A DNA stretch of 64,000 bases, from contig DWUX01000197.1 of assembly GCA_019120545.1 (NCBI GenBank), positions 16,767 through 80,766 on the forward strand, in the 5' to 3' direction. Made by a program: the position numbers and the translations under genes. Positions 13,054-59,738 of this stretch are shown piece after piece; within the stretch, counting starts at the first letter, position 1, and each line of letters opens with the position of its first letter. The notes under the pieces are model-generated. The model made no database searches, was not told where the DNA came from, and saw nothing but the letters and a program-made list of their open reading frames with translations. The DNA is from Candidatus Blautia stercoripullorum (lineage in GTDB: Bacteria; Bacillota; Clostridia; Lachnospirales; Lachnospiraceae).

Positions 13054-13473
13054 ATGAAAAAAGAACTTCCCTATTTTAAAATAGAAGAGGCCCGCGGAGG
13101 AAACCAGGAATGGTTCCCGGACCAGATGATGCGCTTAGGAGGATGTGCAGCTGTCACAGCATGTGACAGCTGCATTTTCTTTGACCTTTATAAAGGAACC
13201 CATCTGTATCCTTTTGACAGGAAGAATATAACAAAAGCCGATTATATCCGGTTCGGAATGGAGATGAAGCCTTATCTCCGCCCCAGATGGTCAGGAATTG
13301 ACACCCTGGATATTTATATGGAAGGATTTGGAAAATATGAGAAGAGACAAGAAAAGTTTATGGTCAAGATTATCACATACGGAAAATATTTTTGGGTGGA
13401 TTTTCAGGAACTGTGGAACACCGGACATAAAAGAAAAGGCGGTCTGATCCTTTATCATGGTAAAGAGGGGTGA
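13054..13473 (+). CDS. Hypothetical protein (GGCAA motif, papain/C39-like?), possibly internally deleted
   Basis: 139 aa ORF with RBS, containing LGGCAAVTAC. It seems to lack a central segment relative to the roughly 200-aa homologs I recall. Confidence 0.5.
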   Translation: MKKELPYFKIEEARGGNQEWFPDQMMRLGGCAAVTACDSCIFFDLYKGTHLYPFDRKNITKADYIRFGMEMKPYLRPRWSGIDTLDIYMEGFGKYEKRQEKFMVKIITYGKYFWVDFQELWNTGHKRKGGLILYHGKEG

Positions 13474-14365
13474 TTTTTTGCTGTTCAGACAGATGAAATA
13501 TTTTATCGCAGTAGTGGATCGGGGAAGTTTCACAGAAGCGGCAGAGCAATGCTATATCTCCCAGTCAGCAGTTTCCCAGCAGATACGGGCTTTGGAAAAA
13601 GAGCTGGGAGTAGAACTGCTCCACAGAGAGAACCGGAGGTTTACTCTTACTCCGGCAGGAGAATATTTTTATAGCCAGAGCAAAGGAATCTTGAAAGAAG
13701 TAGAAGATATCCGGAGAGAAACCATCCGTATAGGCCAGGATGAAGAGTCGGAGCTTCGGATCGGATATCTCCGGTGCTACAGCGGCCAGGAACTTCATCA
13801 GGCGGTGGCAGAATTTTCTCAGGTTTACCCGGAGGTTTCTATTAGCATTGTAAACGGTACCCATGAAGAACTTTACGATCTCCTCCGTTTCGGAGGAACA
13901 GATCTGGTCCTTACAGACCAGCGGAGAGCTTTTTCCGACAAGTATACGAACTATCAGCTGCTGAAATGCGGATGCTACGCAGAAGTTTCTGTCCGCAGCC
14001 GGCTGGCCCGGCAGGAATTTGTCACTATGGAAGATCTGAAACATCAAGCCTGTATTCTGATCTCTTCCAGAGAACAGCAGAATACAGAGGAAGATTATTT
14101 TAGGAACACTCTGGGATTTGGCGGCAGGTTTTTATTTGCGGAAAACCTGGAAGAAGGCCGTCTGATGGTGGCGGGAAACCGGGGATTTCTTCCTATAGAA
14201 AGCGTGGGAACCCTTCCACCTCCGGCCGCGGCAGTGAAACGTCTGCCGATCATGGAGAATGGAAAGCAGCTTCAGAGAAACTACTGTCTCTTCTGGGTGA
14301 AGGAGCACACCAACTATTATATTGAAGAGTTCGCGGAAACTTTGCGGAAACTTTTGAAAGGTTGA
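13457..14365 (+). CDS. LysR family transcriptional regulator
   Basis: RQMKYFIAVVDRGSFTEAAEQCYISQSAVSQQIRALE HTH. Confidence 0.95.
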   Translation: MVKRGDFLLFRQMKYFIAVVDRGSFTEAAEQCYISQSAVSQQIRALEKELGVELLHRENRRFTLTPAGEYFYSQSKGILKEVEDIRRETIRIGQDEESELRIGYLRCYSGQELHQAVAEFSQVYPEVSISIVNGTHEELYDLLRFGGTDLVLTDQRRAFSDKYTNYQLLKCGCYAEVSVRSRLARQEFVTMEDLKHQACILISSREQQNTEEDYFRNTLGFGGRFLFAENLEEGRLMVAGNRGFLPIESVGTLPPPAAAVKRLPIMENGKQLQRNYCLFWVKEHTNYYIEEFAETLRKLLKG

Positions 14366-14626: not shown

Positions 14627-16315
14627 TCAGGCAACTGCCTTCTTCTTCAGCAGTTCCTTTCCGGAAGTCACTACAATAGTCACGCCCAGGATCATCAGCA
14701 GCACAGCTACGATAAGCTGGAGGCCTTCTACCATGAATGTGCCGGTTCCTGCTGTAAAGGCGTTGACCAGAGCGATGAATCTCTGTACTAGAGCAGTAAA
14801 GGTAACTACCAGCATGATCACGAAAGGAGGAACCAGGGTTCTCATTTCTCTGCCTGTAACTTTCAGGAATACACAAAGAGTGATCAGTACCAGGGCGCTG
14901 AGAAGCTGGTTGGCGCTTCCGAAGAGCGGCCAGATATTGGAGTAGCCTACCTGTGTCAGGATATAGCCGAATACCAGTGTGATCAGAGTGGCAAAATATT
15001 TGTTGCACAGGACTTTTCTCCAGCCTTCTGCATGTTCCATGTCATCTACGCTGAACAGTTCCTGGAAGGACATACGGCCGATACGTGCCACGGAATCCAG
15101 GGTAGTGAAAGCCAGGGCAGATACGCACATGGTCATAAAGCTCTGGGCTACAAATACAGGGATATGGAACATTTCCAGAAAACCTGCAACTCCTGAGGAG
15201 AAGATTTGGAAAGGAGTTCCCACTGCGGCAGTTCCGTCTGCACTGGCGGCGGCCCCTGCCACACACAGAGCGATAACGGCCAGAAGACTTTCCAGTACCA
15301 TAGCGCCATAGCCTACCTTCAGCATATCTTTTTCATTAGAAATCGTCTTGGAAGAGGTGCCGGAGGATACCAGACTGTGGAATCCGGATACGGCGCCGCA
15401 GGCAACAGTTACGAACAGGATAGGGAAAAGAGTTCCCAGGTTTTCATTCCGGAATCCTGTAAAAGCAGGAAGGTTCATGGAAGGATGAGCAAAGACCAAT
15501 CCAAGGACTGCTCCTGCGATCATGCCGATGAACATAAAGGTAGACATATAATCTCTTGGCTGCATAAGGAACCACATAGGAAGCACAGCTGCCAGGAAAA
15601 TATAGATAAATGCGATGTAGATCCACATTTCTTTGCCAAGGATCACAGGAAGGTTCATTCCGCATACAAAAGCCAGTATGGTAAAGACCAGTCCTAAAAC
15701 CACTTCTTTCCAGCCGGTAAATTTCATCTTTTTCTGGACCAGTCCGAAAACTGCGGCAAAAAGAATGAAAAACAGGGAGATACTTCCGGCGGCGCCGTTT
15801 ACAGTGGCATTTTCAGAGAGGGTTTTCACACCGTCTGTCACCACGTAGGCATTGAAAGTATCGGCTACCATATCTGCAAAGGCTGCCATAACGATCAGAG
15901 TAAACAGCCAGCAGAATCCCAGGAACAGTTTACGTCCGGTCTTGCCTATGTATTTCTCGATAAGAAGTCCCATGGATTTTCCATCATTCTTTACGCTGGC
16001 GTAAAGGGCTCCGAAGTCAGTGACTGCGCCAAAGAAGATACCGCCCAGGATGATCCACAGAAGCACCGGCAGCCAGCCGAAGGCTGCGGCCTGGATGGCT
16101 CCTGTAACAGGGCCTGCGCCGGCGATGGAAGAAAACTGGTGGGCAAATACGGTCCAGCCGTCGGTAGGCACATAATCCTGTCCGTCGTTATGAAGGACAG
16201 CCGGAGTCTTTGCCTTGGGATCGATGCCCCATTTTTTCGCCAGCCAGCGTCCGTATAAGGCATAGGCTGCGATGAGACATACAGCAGCGATCAGTACGAT
16301 TACAAGTGTGTTCAT
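14627..16315 (-). CDS. cstA: Carbon starvation CstA family transporter (562-aa clostridial form)
   Basis: TPA...DGQDYVPT, HQFSSIAGAGPVTG, FVTVACGAVSGFHSL, GYGAMVLES and WPLFGSANQLL motifs; polytopic. Confidence 0.93.
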   Translation of the reverse strand: MNTLVIVLIAAVCLIAAYALYGRWLAKKWGIDPKAKTPAVLHNDGQDYVPTDGWTVFAHQFSSIAGAGPVTGAIQAAAFGWLPVLLWIILGGIFFGAVTDFGALYASVKNDGKSMGLLIEKYIGKTGRKLFLGFCWLFTLIVMAAFADMVADTFNAYVVTDGVKTLSENATVNGAAGSISLFFILFAAVFGLVQKKMKFTGWKEVVLGLVFTILAFVCGMNLPVILGKEMWIYIAFIYIFLAAVLPMWFLMQPRDYMSTFMFIGMIAGAVLGLVFAHPSMNLPAFTGFRNENLGTLFPILFVTVACGAVSGFHSLVSSGTSSKTISNEKDMLKVGYGAMVLESLLAVIALCVAGAAASADGTAAVGTPFQIFSSGVAGFLEMFHIPVFVAQSFMTMCVSALAFTTLDSVARIGRMSFQELFSVDDMEHAEGWRKVLCNKYFATLITLVFGYILTQVGYSNIWPLFGSANQLLSALVLITLCVFLKVTGREMRTLVPPFVIMLVVTFTALVQRFIALVNAFTAGTGTFMVEGLQLIVAVLLMILGVTIVVTSGKELLKKKAVA

Positions 16316-16353
16316 AATTAGACATCTCCTTTATTATTTTTCAGATCAAAGCC

Positions 16354-16640
16354 AAAAAAAATCGCCTTCCGACAGATTACTCTGTCAGAAGACGAATAAA
16401 ATTATCTCCGCGTTACCACTTCTGTTACCGGGAAATCCCGGTCTCTTGGCCCCGTCGTTCAGTTTATACTGAATTAACAGGTTTCCTTATATCGGAGGAA
16501 TTCCGGTCCGGGTTACTGTTTCTCATGTTCACCCTGACTGCTCACAGGTGATAGCCGCCCTGACTATGCTGTCTCCTCACACCATCCGGAGACTCTCTGA
16601 AAACATAACTGTCTGGGAAGTCCTGTCCTGTTCTTCGCAT
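16354..16640 (-). promoter_or_regulatory. T-box riboswitch, probable Ile (AUC) specifier, with terminator
   Basis: On the minus strand: stem I with GA motif, AGAGAG bulge and TGGTGTGA distal loop. Specifier ATC-A-CCTGT at 16550-16552. Stem II with GAA/AGTA. Stem III ACCGGGATTTCCCGGT. T-box GAAGTGGTAACGCG at 16409-16422. Terminator hairpin 16363-16394 followed by a U-run. Confidence 0.9.
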
Positions 16641-16662
16641 TGGCTTTTCTCAATTCGGTTTC

Positions 16663-16690
16663 ATTATAGCTCAAAAAATCAGAATGTCAA
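16663..16690 (-). promoter_or_regulatory. SigmaA promoter for the T-box/cstA transcript
   Basis: TTGACA-N16-TATAAT on the minus strand, just upstream of stem I. Confidence 0.85.
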
Positions 16691-16722: not shown

Positions 16723-17952
16723 TTAGATTTTGTCTGTTTTTATGAAAAACAGAAAGCCGATGAGGAACATCAGGGAGAGTGCGCCTACCCCCAGATTTAC
16801 GCTTCCGGAGATCTGGCTTACCAGGGATACCAGCATGGTTCCCATAAAAGAAGCTCCTTTTCCGCAGATATCGTAAATGCCGAAATATTCTCCGGATCTG
16901 TCTTCCGGGATGATCTGGGCAAAGTAGGAACGGGACAGGGACTGGATAGCGCCCTGGAAGATTCCCACACATACCGCCAGGATCCAGAACTGATACTGTT
17001 TGGAGAGAATGATCCCGTAAAGAGAAATGCAGAAATAGGCTCCGATGCAGATCAGGATCAGCCTGGAGGCAGGAGCTTTTCTGGACAGTCTTCCGAAGGT
17101 CAGCGCTGCGGGAAATGCTACGATCTGGGTCAGCAGCAGCGCCAGAAGCAGTCCCGTGGTGTCCAGACCAAGAGCAGTTCCATAGGCGGTAGCCATATCG
17201 ATAATGGTGTAAACCCCGTCGATAAAGAAGAAAAAGGCGATCAGGAAAAAGAGGATCTTCTTTTTCTCTTTTAATTCAGAAAAAATCCTTGCCAGACGTT
17301 TCAGCCCTGAGGAGACTGGGCTTTTTGTCACAGGGGTAAAATTTTTCTGCTGATAAGCGGCGATCAGAGGAAAAGCCATTCCCACCCACCAGATGGCAGT
17401 GAGGAGAAATGCCCCTCCCATGGCCAGTTCCATGGAAATCCCGATTTTATCATAAAATAACACCAGAAGCAGGCTGATGATAAAGGGGATACAGCTTCCG
17501 ATATAACCCCAGGCATAACCGTGGGAGGATACCTCGTCCATCCGGTCTTTGTCTGTAACATCCGTAAGCATGGAATCGTAGACCACCAGACTCAGGGAAT
17601 AGGCGGATTTGGCAATGACAAATACCAGCAGGAACCAGAGCCAGGATGAGGTAAATCCCAGGAAGACACAGCCCAGTGCCCCGATAAGCATAACGGTCAG
17701 AAAAATCTTCCGTTTCCAGCCGGGAAAATCGGAAAAGGTTCCCAGAACAGGCCCCAGAATGGCTACGATAACAGTAGATACAGATACCGCATAGCCCCAG
17801 TAAGCCAGGTAATCTACATCGGATACCCCGGCGTTTCCTGCCAGATAATTAAAATAGATCGGCATGATCGTGGATACCAAAAGAGTAAATGCAGAATTTC
17901 CCACATCATATAAGATCCACTTTTTTTCTAAATCATTTAGTTTGAACTTCAT
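16723..17952 (-). CDS. MFS transporter (UMF1/YxiO-like)
   Basis: WILYDVGNSAF, GTFSD...RK, YDSML...SSHGYAWGYIG and SLSRSYF; 12 TM. Confidence 0.85.
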   Translation of the reverse strand: MKFKLNDLEKKWILYDVGNSAFTLLVSTIMPIYFNYLAGNAGVSDVDYLAYWGYAVSVSTVIVAILGPVLGTFSDFPGWKRKIFLTVMLIGALGCVFLGFTSSWLWFLLVFVIAKSAYSLSLVVYDSMLTDVTDKDRMDEVSSHGYAWGYIGSCIPFIISLLLVLFYDKIGISMELAMGGAFLLTAIWWVGMAFPLIAAYQQKNFTPVTKSPVSSGLKRLARIFSELKEKKKILFFLIAFFFFIDGVYTIIDMATAYGTALGLDTTGLLLALLLTQIVAFPAALTFGRLSRKAPASRLILICIGAYFCISLYGIILSKQYQFWILAVCVGIFQGAIQSLSRSYFAQIIPEDRSGEYFGIYDICGKGASFMGTMLVSLVSQISGSVNLGVGALSLMFLIGFLFFIKTDKI

Positions 17953-18230
17953 AATTTGATTTCCTCCTTCATAGTAATGGTACTATAGATGGCCGGGGAT
18001 TTCCATATAAAATATCTCAAATCGGCGTAAAAAAACAAACCTGTTATGTAAAGTATATCAAATAAAACGAAAACAATAATTTTTTTGCTTTATTTACAGA
18101 AAATACTACCCATGTTTCATTGTGGGAAGTATAATATAAAACAAATGGCACATAGTATTTTGCAACTATCCGGTCAAGAAATTTTGAAATGGCGGCTGGA
18201 TTGTTGCGCTGTCTGGAAAGGGGGATTTTT

Positions 18231-20330
18231 ATGGACAACCAGTTAGCGTTACTTACTTTATTCGGTTCTATCCTGGCTTTGGCTTTTGCGGCCAGCCGGG
18301 CGGCGAGAGTGCTGAAATTTTCTCAGGGAAATGAGAAAATGAAGAAGATTTCTTCTTCTATCCACCACGGGGCGATGGCCTATCTCAGAAGACAGTACCG
18401 GATACTGATCTGCTTTTTTGCGGGAATGTTCATTATACTTTTTGCTATGGCGGCTTTTGGATATCTTACCTGGTTTGTACCTTTCGCTTTTATTACAGGG
18501 GGATTTTTCTCCGGCCTTTCCGGTTTTGTAGGAATGCAGATCGCTACCAGAGCCAATGGACGGACGGCGGCTGCCTGTCAGCAGGGACTGAATAAAGGAT
18601 TGAATGTGGCCTTCTCCGCCGGGTCTGTTATGGGATTTACAGTGGTAGGACTGGGGCTTTTGGACATTTCTATCTGGTATCTGCTGCTCCGGCTGGTATT
18701 CAAACTTCCTATCGAGGATATTACCAGCACCATGCTCACCTTCGGAATGGGAGCTTCCAGCATGGCTCTTTTTGCCCGTGTAGGCGGCGGGATCTATACC
18801 AAGGCTGCCGATGTGGGAGCAGACCTGGTAGGAAAAATAGAAGCAGGGATCCCTGAAGATGATCCCAGAAATCCGGCGGTTATCGCGGACAATGTAGGGG
18901 ATAATGTAGGAGATGTGGCAGGAATGGGAGCGGATCTGTATGAGTCCTATGTGGGTTCCATCCTTTCTGCCTGCGCTCTGGGAGTGATCGCATTTAATAA
19001 GATCGAATCTGTGGACCGGGTCAATGCAGTAGTGATTCCTATGGTCCTGGCGGCGGTAGGAGTTCTGGCCTCCATTATCGGAAGTCTTCTGGTAAAGACA
19101 GGAGAGAGTACTAAACAGAATGTGCTTCTGGGAGCTCTGCGCAGAGGAACCAACACCAGCGCTATACTGATCGCCATAGTGGCATTTCCCTTGGTGTGGC
19201 TGGTCTTGGGAAAAGAGTTTATCGGATTCTACCTGGCAATCCTGGCAGGACTGCTGGCGGGCGTCCTGATCGGATTCTTTACCGAGTACTTTACCTCGGA
19301 TACTTACAAGCCTACCCAGGATCTGGCGGACAAATCTGTCACAGGTTCGGCTACCATTATCATCGGAGGCCTGAGTCTGGGAATGCTTTCTACGGCTTTG
19401 CCTATTCTGATCGTTGTAGTCTGTGTTATGGCTGCTTATGTATGCTCCGGAGGATTTATCGAGGCTACCAGAGGACTGTATGGCATTGCTCTTTCTGCAG
19501 TAGGTATGCTGTCTACTCTGGGGATTACCCTTGCCACAGACGCCTATGGTCCCATTGCAGATAATGCGGGAGGTATAGCAGAGATGGCAGGACTGGATCC
19601 GGAGGTCCGGGTAAGGACAGATGCGCTGGATTCTCTGGGAAATACTACAGCGGCTACCGGAAAAGGTTTTGCTATCGGTTCTGCAGCTCTGACGGCGCTG
19701 GCTCTGATTGCTTCCTATGTTGAAAAAGTACAGGAAGTAGGAGGGGCTTCTGTGAAGCTGGATATGAGTATTATGAACCCTACCGTATTATGCGGTATTT
19801 TTATCGGGGCCTGCCTGCCATTTGTCTTTGCGGCTCTTACTATGTCCTCTGTAGGCCGGGCGGCCCAGAGTATTGTAATGGAGGTAAGAAGGCAGTTTAA
19901 GGAGATCAGAGGCCTGATGGAAGGAAAAGCGGATGCTGACTATGAAACCTGCGTGGATATCTGTACCAAAGCCAGTCTCCGGGAAATGATCCTTCCTACT
20001 TTGCTGGCGATCGTTACCCCGGTGGTCACCGGCCTGATCCTGGGCTATAACGGGGTCATCGGCCTTTTGGCCGGATCTACTGCCACAGGATTTCTCATGG
20101 CGGTTTTTATGGCCAACGCCGGAGGCGCCTGGGACAATGCAAAAAAATACATTGAAGGCGGCGCCCATGGGGGAAAAGGAAGCGAGGCCCATAAAGCGGC
20201 TGTAGTGGGAGACACGGTGGGAGATCCTTTTAAGGATACTTCAGGACCTTCTATCAATATCCTGATCAAGCTTCTTTCTATGGTGTCTATAGTCTTTGCG
20301 GCGCTGGTGGTACAGTTCCATATTTTCTGA
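18231..20330 (+). CDS. hppA: Membrane-integral K+-dependent pyrophosphatase, probably Na+-translocating
   Basis: [39 protein letters not shown] and [20 protein letters not shown] indicates the K+-dependent type, and DLYESY suggests a Na+-PPase. Confidence 0.93.
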
Positions 20331-41360: not shown

Positions 41361-41426
41361 AAAAATTTATACAATATGACAATATATATTGAAAAAACAG
41401 GGATTTTATTATAACATATATATATA

Positions 41427-41529
41427 AAATCCGAGTCCTGTAAAGAGGAAACAGGACCATGCCGAGATGATCTTTCGGCGAGGGTATTGACCGCTTGAAT
41501 CAATGCCTCCCGTGTTTGGAAAGGATTTT
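41427..41529 (+). promoter_or_regulatory. Moco/Tuco RNA motif (molybdenum/tungsten cofactor riboswitch candidate)
   Basis: AAATCCGAG...GCCTCCCGT...TGGAAAGG conserved segments. Closing stem AAATCC/GGATTT with internal hairpins. Lies upstream of aor. Confidence 0.78.
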
Positions 41530-41601
41530 CATGTAACAGCAGTTATGTCCTTTTATTTTCAGGACAGTTGGCTATTTGTGAAATGCAAGGGAGGGTAAGT
41601 T

Positions 41602-51981: not shown

Positions 51982-51988
51982 ATAGAAA

Positions 51989-52097
51989 ATTCTTCAGGGC
52001 AGGGTGCAAGTCCCTACCGGTGGTAAAGCCCACGAGCCGCAAGGCATGATTCGGTGAAACTCCGAAGCCGACAGTATAGTCTGGATGAAAGAAGATT
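51989..52097 (+). promoter_or_regulatory. FMN riboswitch (RFN element)
   Basis: TCAGGGCAGGGTG..AGTCCCTACCGGTGGTAAAGCCCACGAGC...GATTCGGTGAAACTCCGAAGCCGACAGTATAGTCTGGATGAAAGAAG. Confidence 0.97.
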
Positions 52098-52144
52098 TGG
52101 CGTTTGATATTGTATATCTATATCTGTATATACCATGAAAGGTC

Positions 52145-59364: not shown

Positions 59365-59465
59365 TGATCAATACTTTAAAGAGGTCCTGAAAAAAGAAAG
59401 AGCCTCTTGTAATCTGCAGAAAACTGTGATAGAGTACATGTTGACAATATTAATATGATGAAAAT

Positions 59466-59645
59466 CGGCAGAGTGGAAGAGGCTGCGTCAATACACAGCA
59501 GCCTGTTCTGAAAAGGGAACGGGGTGAGAATCCCCGACGGTCCGGCCACTGTAAACCGGGAGTCTGTCTTTAAAGGCCATTGCGCAGAAGCGTGAGAAGG
59601 CAAAGACAGATGAAGATCGGTAAGTCAGGAGACCTGCTTTGCCAG
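59466..59645 (+). promoter_or_regulatory. Cobalamin riboswitch
   Basis: AAAGGGAACGGGGTGAGAATCCCCGACGG, GCCACTGTAA and AAGTCAGGAGACCTG (B12 box), with a closing stem GGCAGAG/CTTTGCC. Confidence 0.93.
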
Positions 59646-59738
59646 ATAAGATGAGGCTTCCGAGTAAAGTGACCATCTGTAAAGATACAGACTGAAAAGG
59701 GGTTATTCCCTTTATGAGATAAATGGATTTTAGACGAA

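Follow-up and report, generated by a model that had tools for sequence, protein, structure and literature searches.

What does a transporter of the carbon-starvation family import when the gene that encodes it appears to answer to the charging of an amino-acid tRNA? The question is raised by a stretch of 64,000 nucleotides from Candidatus Blautia stercoripullorum (GenBank assembly GCA_019120545.1, contig DWUX01000197.1, positions 16,767 to 80,766; this whole stretch is called the window below), in which cstA, the gene for a CstA-family transporter, lies behind a T-box leader with an isoleucine specifier codon. The leader is a canonical transcription-attenuation T-box with the terminator as its default fold, and the regulation is very probably that of a standard transcriptional T-box sensing tRNA-Ile. 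For the transporter, the most economical reading is an importer of branched-chain amino acids (BCAAs), taken up free or as short hydrophobic peptides and induced by starvation for isoleucine or leucine, and we give this reading about an even chance of being correct.

The cstA leader and its specifier codon

The features of the cstA unit are collected in Table 1. A sequence-only reading of this DNA had described a consensus promoter followed by a complete T-box with the specifier AUC and a UGGU bulge, and the analysis agrees with it on each of these points. Both promoter hexamers match the consensus throughout, and the −10 region can be aligned among close orthologues. The leader, which is roughly 340 nucleotides long, is matched by the Rfam T-box model RF00230 over all model positions, 1–219, and scores 97.2 bits, above the gathering score of 93 (E = 4e-20). 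Within the antiterminator, the AGTGGTAACGCG portion of the T-box sequence is kept in most orthologous leaders. The terminator is predicted to be stable (minimum free energy −29.4 kcal/mol, z = −4.37) and its stem shows compensatory changes among orthologues. For its 3′ strand the antiterminator uses bases from the 5′ strand of this stem, and the two structures are therefore mutually exclusive. The S-turn bases of the specifier loop are off consensus, being AGGA/GGC where the consensus is AGUA/GAA.

Table 1. Features of the cstA unit, neighbouring genes and other RNA elements in the window (positions count from its first letter)
Feature	Position	Strand	Basis or remark
Sigma-70 promoter: TTGACA 16690-16685, 16-nt spacer, TATAAT 16668-16663	16663..16690	minus	12/12 consensus matches
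T-box leader, full length: Stem I, II, IIA/B, III, antiterminator	16385..16644	minus	Rfam RF00230
Stem I: K-turn region, specifier loop, AG bulge, distal loop	16538..16641	minus	Covariance model R1, 93.6 bits
AG bulge AGAGA	16598-16594	minus	Sequence reading
Specifier AUC (Ile), then A16549, then helix strand CCUG 16548-16545	16550..16552	minus	Model-aligned column
Antiterminator helix	16387..16423	minus	Sequence reading and Rfam alignment
T-box sequence GUGGUAACGCG	16419-16409	minus	Within antiterminator helix
UGGU bulge of antiterminator	16418-16415	minus	Sequence reading
Intrinsic terminator: 15-bp stem 16395-16362, then U8 16361-16354	16354..16395	minus	
Ribosome-binding site AGGAG	16326..16330	minus	Sequence reading; 10 nt 5′ of ATG
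CstA-family transporter gene, 562 amino acids, ATG at 16315	14627..16315	minus	Open reading frame, Pfam PF02554
Atg22-like major facilitator superfamily transporter	16723-17952	minus	Directly upstream of the cstA unit
LysR-type regulator	13457-14365	plus	Downstream of cstA, opposite strand
Membrane H+-pyrophosphatase	18189-20330	plus	Further upstream of cstA
Molybdenum cofactor/tungsten riboswitch	41417-41542	plus	49.4 bits, above Rfam gathering score
Flavin mononucleotide (FMN) riboswitch	51986-52100	plus	115.6 bits, above Rfam gathering score
Cobalamin riboswitch	59454-59655	plus	111 bits, above Rfam gathering score

The tRNA-dependent steps of the cstA switch are inferred from the way in which T-boxes are known to work. 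In a cell short of isoleucine, the AUC codon would be bound by uncharged tRNA-Ile(GAU), whose free NCCA end would pair with UGGU, stabilising the antiterminator and allowing read-through into cstA; charged tRNA would be unable to make the second contact, and transcription would end at the terminator. UGGU would fit an A73 discriminator base, as expected for tRNA-Ile. The tRNA-Ile gene was not found among the only 14 tRNA genes in the 261-contig assembly.

The codon was assigned by a simple rule, in which the specifier is followed by one base and then by the lower helix of Stem I. The source genome contains 15 T-boxes, and wherever the gene 3′ of one of the others encodes an aminoacyl-tRNA synthetase or a biosynthesis enzyme the rule yields the expected amino acid (leuS CUG, cysE UGC, trpE UGG, valS GUA, tyrS UAC, proS CCG, metG AUG and trpS UGG). 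The covariance model R1, built from an alignment of 42 Stem I sequences and the consensus structure derived from it, in which 20 of 22 pairs have changed on both sides, also places AUC in the specifier column, and it is on this model that the call rests. The pairing was tested on 47 leaders, one genome being taken per Lachnospiraceae genus: 91.3% of Stem I cells are paired, whereas shuffles give 68.4% and none of 500 attains the observed figure, and sliding the 3′ partners by one to three columns lowers the pairing to 33–56%. The four-pair helix below the specifier loop covaries as well, with CG replaced by AU or UA, AU by GC and GC by AU.

Orthologous leaders use two codons only. The 55 close orthologous leaders comprise 47 distinct Stem I sequences, and all 47 have AUC, with no CUC and no other codon. 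In the one-per-genus sample there are 41 AUC and six CUC (Leu) with no others, and in a second clade, from the human gut and including Lachnospira, Agathobacter, Faecalibacterium and Gemmiger, the balance is reversed, with 17 AUC, 41 CUC and again no others. Across these three samples, about 150 leaders in all, no codon other than AUC or CUC occurs, and a valine codon is thus absent. The bases around AUC drift within the close set, where CU, CC, UU, UC or GG precede the codon and A, C, G or U follows it. The base after a specifier is canonically a purine; in 17 of the 47 distinct close leaders it is C. In the Lachnospira/Faecalibacterium clade the following base goes with the codon, being always A after CUC and always C after AUC, and the 5′ side of the loop is mostly GGAAAUGAC in the leucine type and GGACA(C/U)GAC in the isoleucine type.

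A second AUC T-box in the genome lies at the end of a contig (C221), and its counterpart in a congener, 92% identical, is directly upstream of ileS, which matches TIGR00392 over its N-terminal half with 579.8 bits. The ileS and cstA leaders of the genus therefore share the specifier AUC. We note that housekeeping loci are broken up in this assembly: its own ileS is a C-terminal piece at the start of another contig (C245).

These observations bear on whether the switch still works. A T-box upstream of cstA1 in Bacillus methanolicus MGA3 has been suggested to have lost its regulatory connection, on the evidence of a transcription break between the T-box and the gene (PMC4342826), and the window leader could be a relic of the same kind; an attenuator in its off state would, for its part, look alike. 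The window leader is nevertheless intact, with its promoter, all its stems and a terminator that abuts the gene, and there is no gene other than cstA downstream for it to serve, cstA being monocistronic and the sole gene 3′ of the leader. The T-box is retained with compensatory changes in more than 150 leaders from many genera, and the specifier is kept while the bases adjacent to it drift. Because of this conservation and covariation we consider a vestigial switch very unlikely indeed, and by a wide distance the least probable of the explanations weighed here.

Distribution of T-box-controlled cstA

Close orthologues of the window protein (85–99% identity) were found at 80 loci in Blautia, Mediterraneibacter, Dorea, Fusicatenibacter and other Lachnospiraceae of the chicken and human gut, and Stem I is present at 55 of the 80, which answers the question of leader conservation that the sequence-only reading had raised. 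A CstA homologue occurs in 137 of 401 Lachnospiraceae genomes, sampled at one per genus. In this sample the T-box-bearing genes form one clade (SH-aLRT 100; 72 rows, 51–100% identity to the window protein), which holds every T-box directly upstream of cstA. Its 72 rows comprise 41 of the isoleucine type, five of the leucine type and 26 without a T-box, and among these 26 are a few loci truncated where a contig stops. In a class-wide Clostridia sample the T-box motif is absent from the homologues of other families, which are 49% identical or less.

A second clade of cstA paralogues, 40–46% identical and without a T-box directly upstream of cstA, shares several genomes with the T-box clade. In eight of nine paralogue loci (L207–L215), a conserved gene for a protein of about 175–210 amino acids lies immediately upstream (tblastn), and this protein has no Pfam match. 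In one genome (G491), a Stem I with the specifier CUC lies about 1.3 kb upstream of the cstA paralogue (L211, positions 97–196 and 591–1224); a similarly placed open reading frame of 210 amino acids lies after this Stem I, as does the paralogue itself.

A search with a leucine-type query retrieved 80 more loci. They include Lachnospira, Agathobacter and Roseburia/Eubacterium CAG bins, and also Faecalibacterium, Gemmiger, Subdoligranulum and Agathobaculum; these last four are at 79–93% identity, which indicates transfer between families. The clade spans gut Clostridia, covering Lachnospiraceae and some Oscillospiraceae and Butyricicoccaceae, with Blautia, Mediterraneibacter, Lachnospira, Agathobacter, Faecalibacterium and Gemmiger among its genera.

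The well-supported branches of the tree from the leucine-type query force at least five changes between the isoleucine and leucine labels. A single base change turns AUC into CUC, and on this evidence the specifier has toggled repeatedly. The sequence-only reading held that a clostridial subfamily of CstA had been recruited to isoleucine supply. A distinct T-box clade does exist, and that part of the proposal stands; the restriction to isoleucine does not, since leaders with CUC make up 6 of 47 in the one-per-genus sample and 41 of 58 in the Lachnospira/Faecalibacterium clade. As judged from its specifiers, the clade is tied to the supply of isoleucine and leucine and not to isoleucine alone.

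Two further groups of loci lie outside this range. Orthologues 85–89% identical are found on contigs from at least 15 metagenome-assembled genomes (MAGs) assigned to Spirochaetaceae (L079–L087, L089–L093 and L095). These lack a T-box Stem I, and most of them share an upstream motif of about 80 nucleotides, AAAAAATATATTT..TTCCAATTCG..CACTTTAT..AAAGCGGTAG. It looks from the sequences as if the carrier was acquired horizontally in this family and the T-box replaced by some other control. Five ‘cleanbin’ MAGs (L229, L252, L280, L294 and L295), labelled Bacteroidaceae, Alloprevotella, Coriobacteriaceae, Succinatimonas and Bifidobacteriaceae, carry cstA genes near-identical to Lachnospiraceae or Oscillospiraceae loci. 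Three of them (L229, L252 and L295) also have the T-box Stem I, and L295 is nearly identical to the copy in Agathobacter rectalis. These five records from other phyla are probably mis-binned contigs and not transfers.

Candidate substrates of the transporter

The window protein matches the Pfam CstA family (PF02554, E = 2.3e-144, 482.6 bits), with residues 2–355 aligning to positions 1–353 of the 560-position profile in the best stretch and a second matched stretch present. Pfam reports CstA alone, and the profile of the branched-chain amino acid carriers (Branch_AA_trans, PF05525) is unmatched. The sequence-only reading had set the protein apart from the pyruvate symporters of its family, and the NCBIfam profile for the E. 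coli-type pyruvate/H+ symporter CstA (NF011590) bears this out: it is 701 positions long against 562 residues here, and the score of 245.8 bits does not reach the equivalog cut-off of 1188.

A search of the PDB by sequence with the window protein gave no match, and hence no detectable structure of the CstA family. The structure was considered through an AlphaFold2 model, which is of moderate confidence (predicted local distance difference test, pLDDT, 66.8; predicted template modelling score 0.69). The top PDB matches of the model are all carriers of the APC/LeuT fold, among them ApcT (template modelling scores 0.50/0.62), BasC, AgcS, AdiC, SGLT and CHT1, with E values of about 1e-4. TCDB places the CstA family (TC 2.A.114) in the APC superfamily. 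The predicted fold would fit an amino-acid carrier, and other solutes are possible. The cstA product is expected to be a secondary importer, probably proton-coupled, with a fold of the APC/LeuT type. Transporters under T-box control normally carry the cognate amino acid, and an importer of this kind would relieve a shortage of isoleucine or leucine.

If the carrier were specialised for one amino acid, its sequence might be expected to change with the specifier. Over six independent sister contrasts no residue consistently tracks the isoleucine or leucine codon; at position 451, for example, F gives way to Y in some contrasts and Y to F in others. Because no protein column changes consistently, the carrier was apparently not retuned when the codon switched. 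It follows that substrates serving isoleucine alone, such as the precursors 2-oxobutyrate, 2-oxo-3-methylvalerate and 2-methylbutyrate put forward by the sequence-only reading, are disfavoured; that part of the reading is not upheld. The repeated switches without protein change favour instead a substrate, or a range of substrates, that serves both amino acids. A carrier of branched acids with a broad range would escape the objection.

This leaves a possible importer of precursors, either branched 2-oxo acids (2-oxo-3-methylvalerate, 2-oxoisocaproate) or branched short-chain acids, that would be converted to isoleucine and leucine inside the cell. Pyruvate, the defined substrate of the family, is itself a 2-oxo monocarboxylate, and the late BCAA pathway has been kept, with ilvD in 374 of 401 Lachnospiraceae genera (93%) and an IlvE-type aminotransferase (PF01063) in 12 of 12 congeners. 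The apparent loss of IlvE from the source genome itself was rejected as an assembly gap. The source genome carries both ilvA and ilvD, and since ilvD is present in 93% of genera a test of its co-occurrence with cstA has no power. Set against the precursor importer, besides the misfit of isoleucine-only precursors, is the genomic context. None of the 15 T-boxes of the source genome precedes an acyl-CoA ligase or VOR, and across about 240 loci cstA has neither an aminotransferase gene nor a ligase gene linked to it. More generally, we found no conserved operon partner (peptidase, aminotransferase or CoA ligase) beside cstA, whose neighbours differ by locus. The T-box-controlled transporters that have been characterised are, to our knowledge, carriers of amino acids, which also counts against the import of precursors. 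We regard it as an unlikely explanation.

The known BCAA carrier of these bacteria, BrnQ, offers a direct comparison. We scanned 40 brnQ upstream regions from Lachnospiraceae and found six T-boxes, all six with the specifier AUC. Five are in genomes without the CstA clade, and the sixth is in a genome (G587) that has lost its cstA T-box, so that none of the genomes has a T-box on both genes. This complementarity is a hint that the two carriers may stand in for each other. Since a known BCAA carrier bears the same AUC T-box, an importer of BCAAs or peptides is the plainer reading of the window gene, and by analogy CstA would do in these hosts the job done elsewhere by BrnQ under an isoleucine T-box. 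The source genome has a separate brnQ gene, on another contig (C75) and without a T-box. As a side observation on brnQ, two Lachnospiraceae genomes have a tRNA gene just upstream of it (L310 in G553 and L335 in G452), and in G553 an FMN riboswitch also begins near brnQ.

Several points weigh against an importer of BCAAs or their peptides. In genomes with a T-box-controlled cstA about 0 of 11 brnQ genes have a T-box, and in the others 6 of 29 do, a difference that is not significant and takes no account of relatedness; nor does overall BrnQ presence show any anticorrelation with the clade (16 of 72 genomes with it, 50 of 329 without). Carriers of the APC fold also include those for sugars, ions and carboxylates, and the confidence of the model is only moderate (pLDDT 66.8). 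The hosts are BCAA prototrophs, so the importer of precursors discussed above would also make sense for them. Finally, the only biochemically defined members of the family, CstA and BtsT of E. coli, are narrowly specific pyruvate/H+ symporters (PMC7730263), and CstA of C. difficile takes up pyruvate (bioRxiv 10.1101/2021.01.23.427917).

This last point raises the prospect that the window protein is a pyruvate importer switched on at a shortage of isoleucine or leucine, which would feed the acetolactate and citramalate-type routes of BCAA synthesis; pyruvate is a carbon source for both amino acids and the pathway is present in the hosts. The family scores speak against it, the protein falling far under the equivalog cut-off, and several of the same genomes have a separate CstA paralogue. 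Valine is made wholly from pyruvate and is not represented among the specifiers. Pyruvate is moreover a central intermediate of fermentation and would hardly be limiting for isoleucine. The import of pyruvate therefore seems to us decidedly unlikely, more so than that of branched precursors.

Returning to the importer of branched-chain compounds, we tentatively propose for the clade as a whole that it is an unrecognised carrier of BCAAs or branched 2-oxo acids, which replaces BrnQ under an isoleucine T-box and whose leader toggles between AUC and CUC without retuning of the protein. This composite proposal falls somewhat short of an even chance.

Members of the clade go by the name ‘carbon starvation protein A’, and uptake of pyruvate or peptides is the function that is usually carried over to them from E. 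coli. The T-box is a statement, readable in the sequence, of the physiological signal to which the gene would respond, that is uncharged tRNA-Ile or tRNA-Leu, and it can be read in abundant gut commensals such as Faecalibacterium, Lachnospira, Agathobacter and Blautia. The regulatory element is itself a standard one, and the interest lies in the gene that it controls. If the clade does carry BCAAs or their keto acids, this would be a new substrate class for the CstA family, would correct the functional inference in many genomes, and would be relevant to the competition for BCAAs, and their exchange, among gut Clostridia. The recurrent switches between isoleucine and leucine, each by one base, also provide a clean natural case in which the T-box of one and the same gene has been retargeted.

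Neighbouring features and comparison with known systems

The genes beside cstA in the window, for the Atg22-like transporter, the LysR-type regulator and the H+-pyrophosphatase (Table 1), are not conserved beside it in relatives. Three riboswitches elsewhere in the window are listed in the same table. In the rest of the assembly, two T-boxes with the tryptophan specifier UGG (contigs C11:6532–6775 and C208:1820–2058, both on the minus strand) precede genes other than trpS and trpE; one encodes an ABC-type substrate-binding lipoprotein and the other a TrpB-like protein of 462 amino acids.

The cstA leader has the same architecture, from Stem I to the antiterminator with a terminator switch, as the RF00230 T-boxes of Bacillota. 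It differs from the T-box norm in the base after the codon, which is C and not a purine in about one third of close leaders, and transporters of the CstA family do not usually figure in discussions of the genes under T-box control. The sequence-only reading knew of no characterisation of this pairing, and none was found in the searched open literature. The sole mention that we found there of a T-box with cstA is that of cstA1 in B. methanolicus MGA3 (PMC4342826), which is the same pairing in another class, Bacilli. It consists of a table entry and one paragraph, the specifier is not reported, and the authors doubted that cstA1 is regulated.

Among the proteins, E. coli CstA and BtsT (TC 2.A.114) and C. 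difficile CstA (CD630_26000) share PF02554 with the window protein, and all are multi-helix secondary carriers. The E. coli proteins transport pyruvate with Km values of 242 μM (CstA) and 16.5 μM (BtsT) (PMC7730263). The control of these genes is different. E. coli cstA is under CRP and CsrA, and btsT under the pyruvate-sensing BtsSR system; CcpA represses C. difficile cstA, which is also controlled by the pyruvate-responsive two-component system encoded next to it (bioRxiv 10.1101/2021.01.23.427917), whereas the window gene has a T-box and would be controlled by tRNA charging. CstA of C. jejuni and CstA/YjiY of Salmonella belong to the same family, and mutants in both have defects in peptide utilisation (PMC7730263; PMC5847655), so that di- and tripeptides link them to amino-acid nitrogen supply (PMC7730263). 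These phenotypes are indirect and tied to carbon starvation, in contrast to the signal expected from the window leader, which would be uncharged tRNA-Ile or, in its leucine-type relatives, tRNA-Leu. Control by tRNA is reported for none of the proteins in these four organisms.

The closest parallel is instead with BrnQ (LIVCS family, PF05525) under an isoleucine T-box. There is no sequence relation between BrnQ and the window CstA, and the likeness is functional and regulatory only. The window cstA leader has the same AUC specifier as the ileS leader of its genus and all six brnQ T-box leaders of Lachnospiraceae, and the two carriers share the same signal, the same bacterial family and the same proposed role in BCAA uptake.

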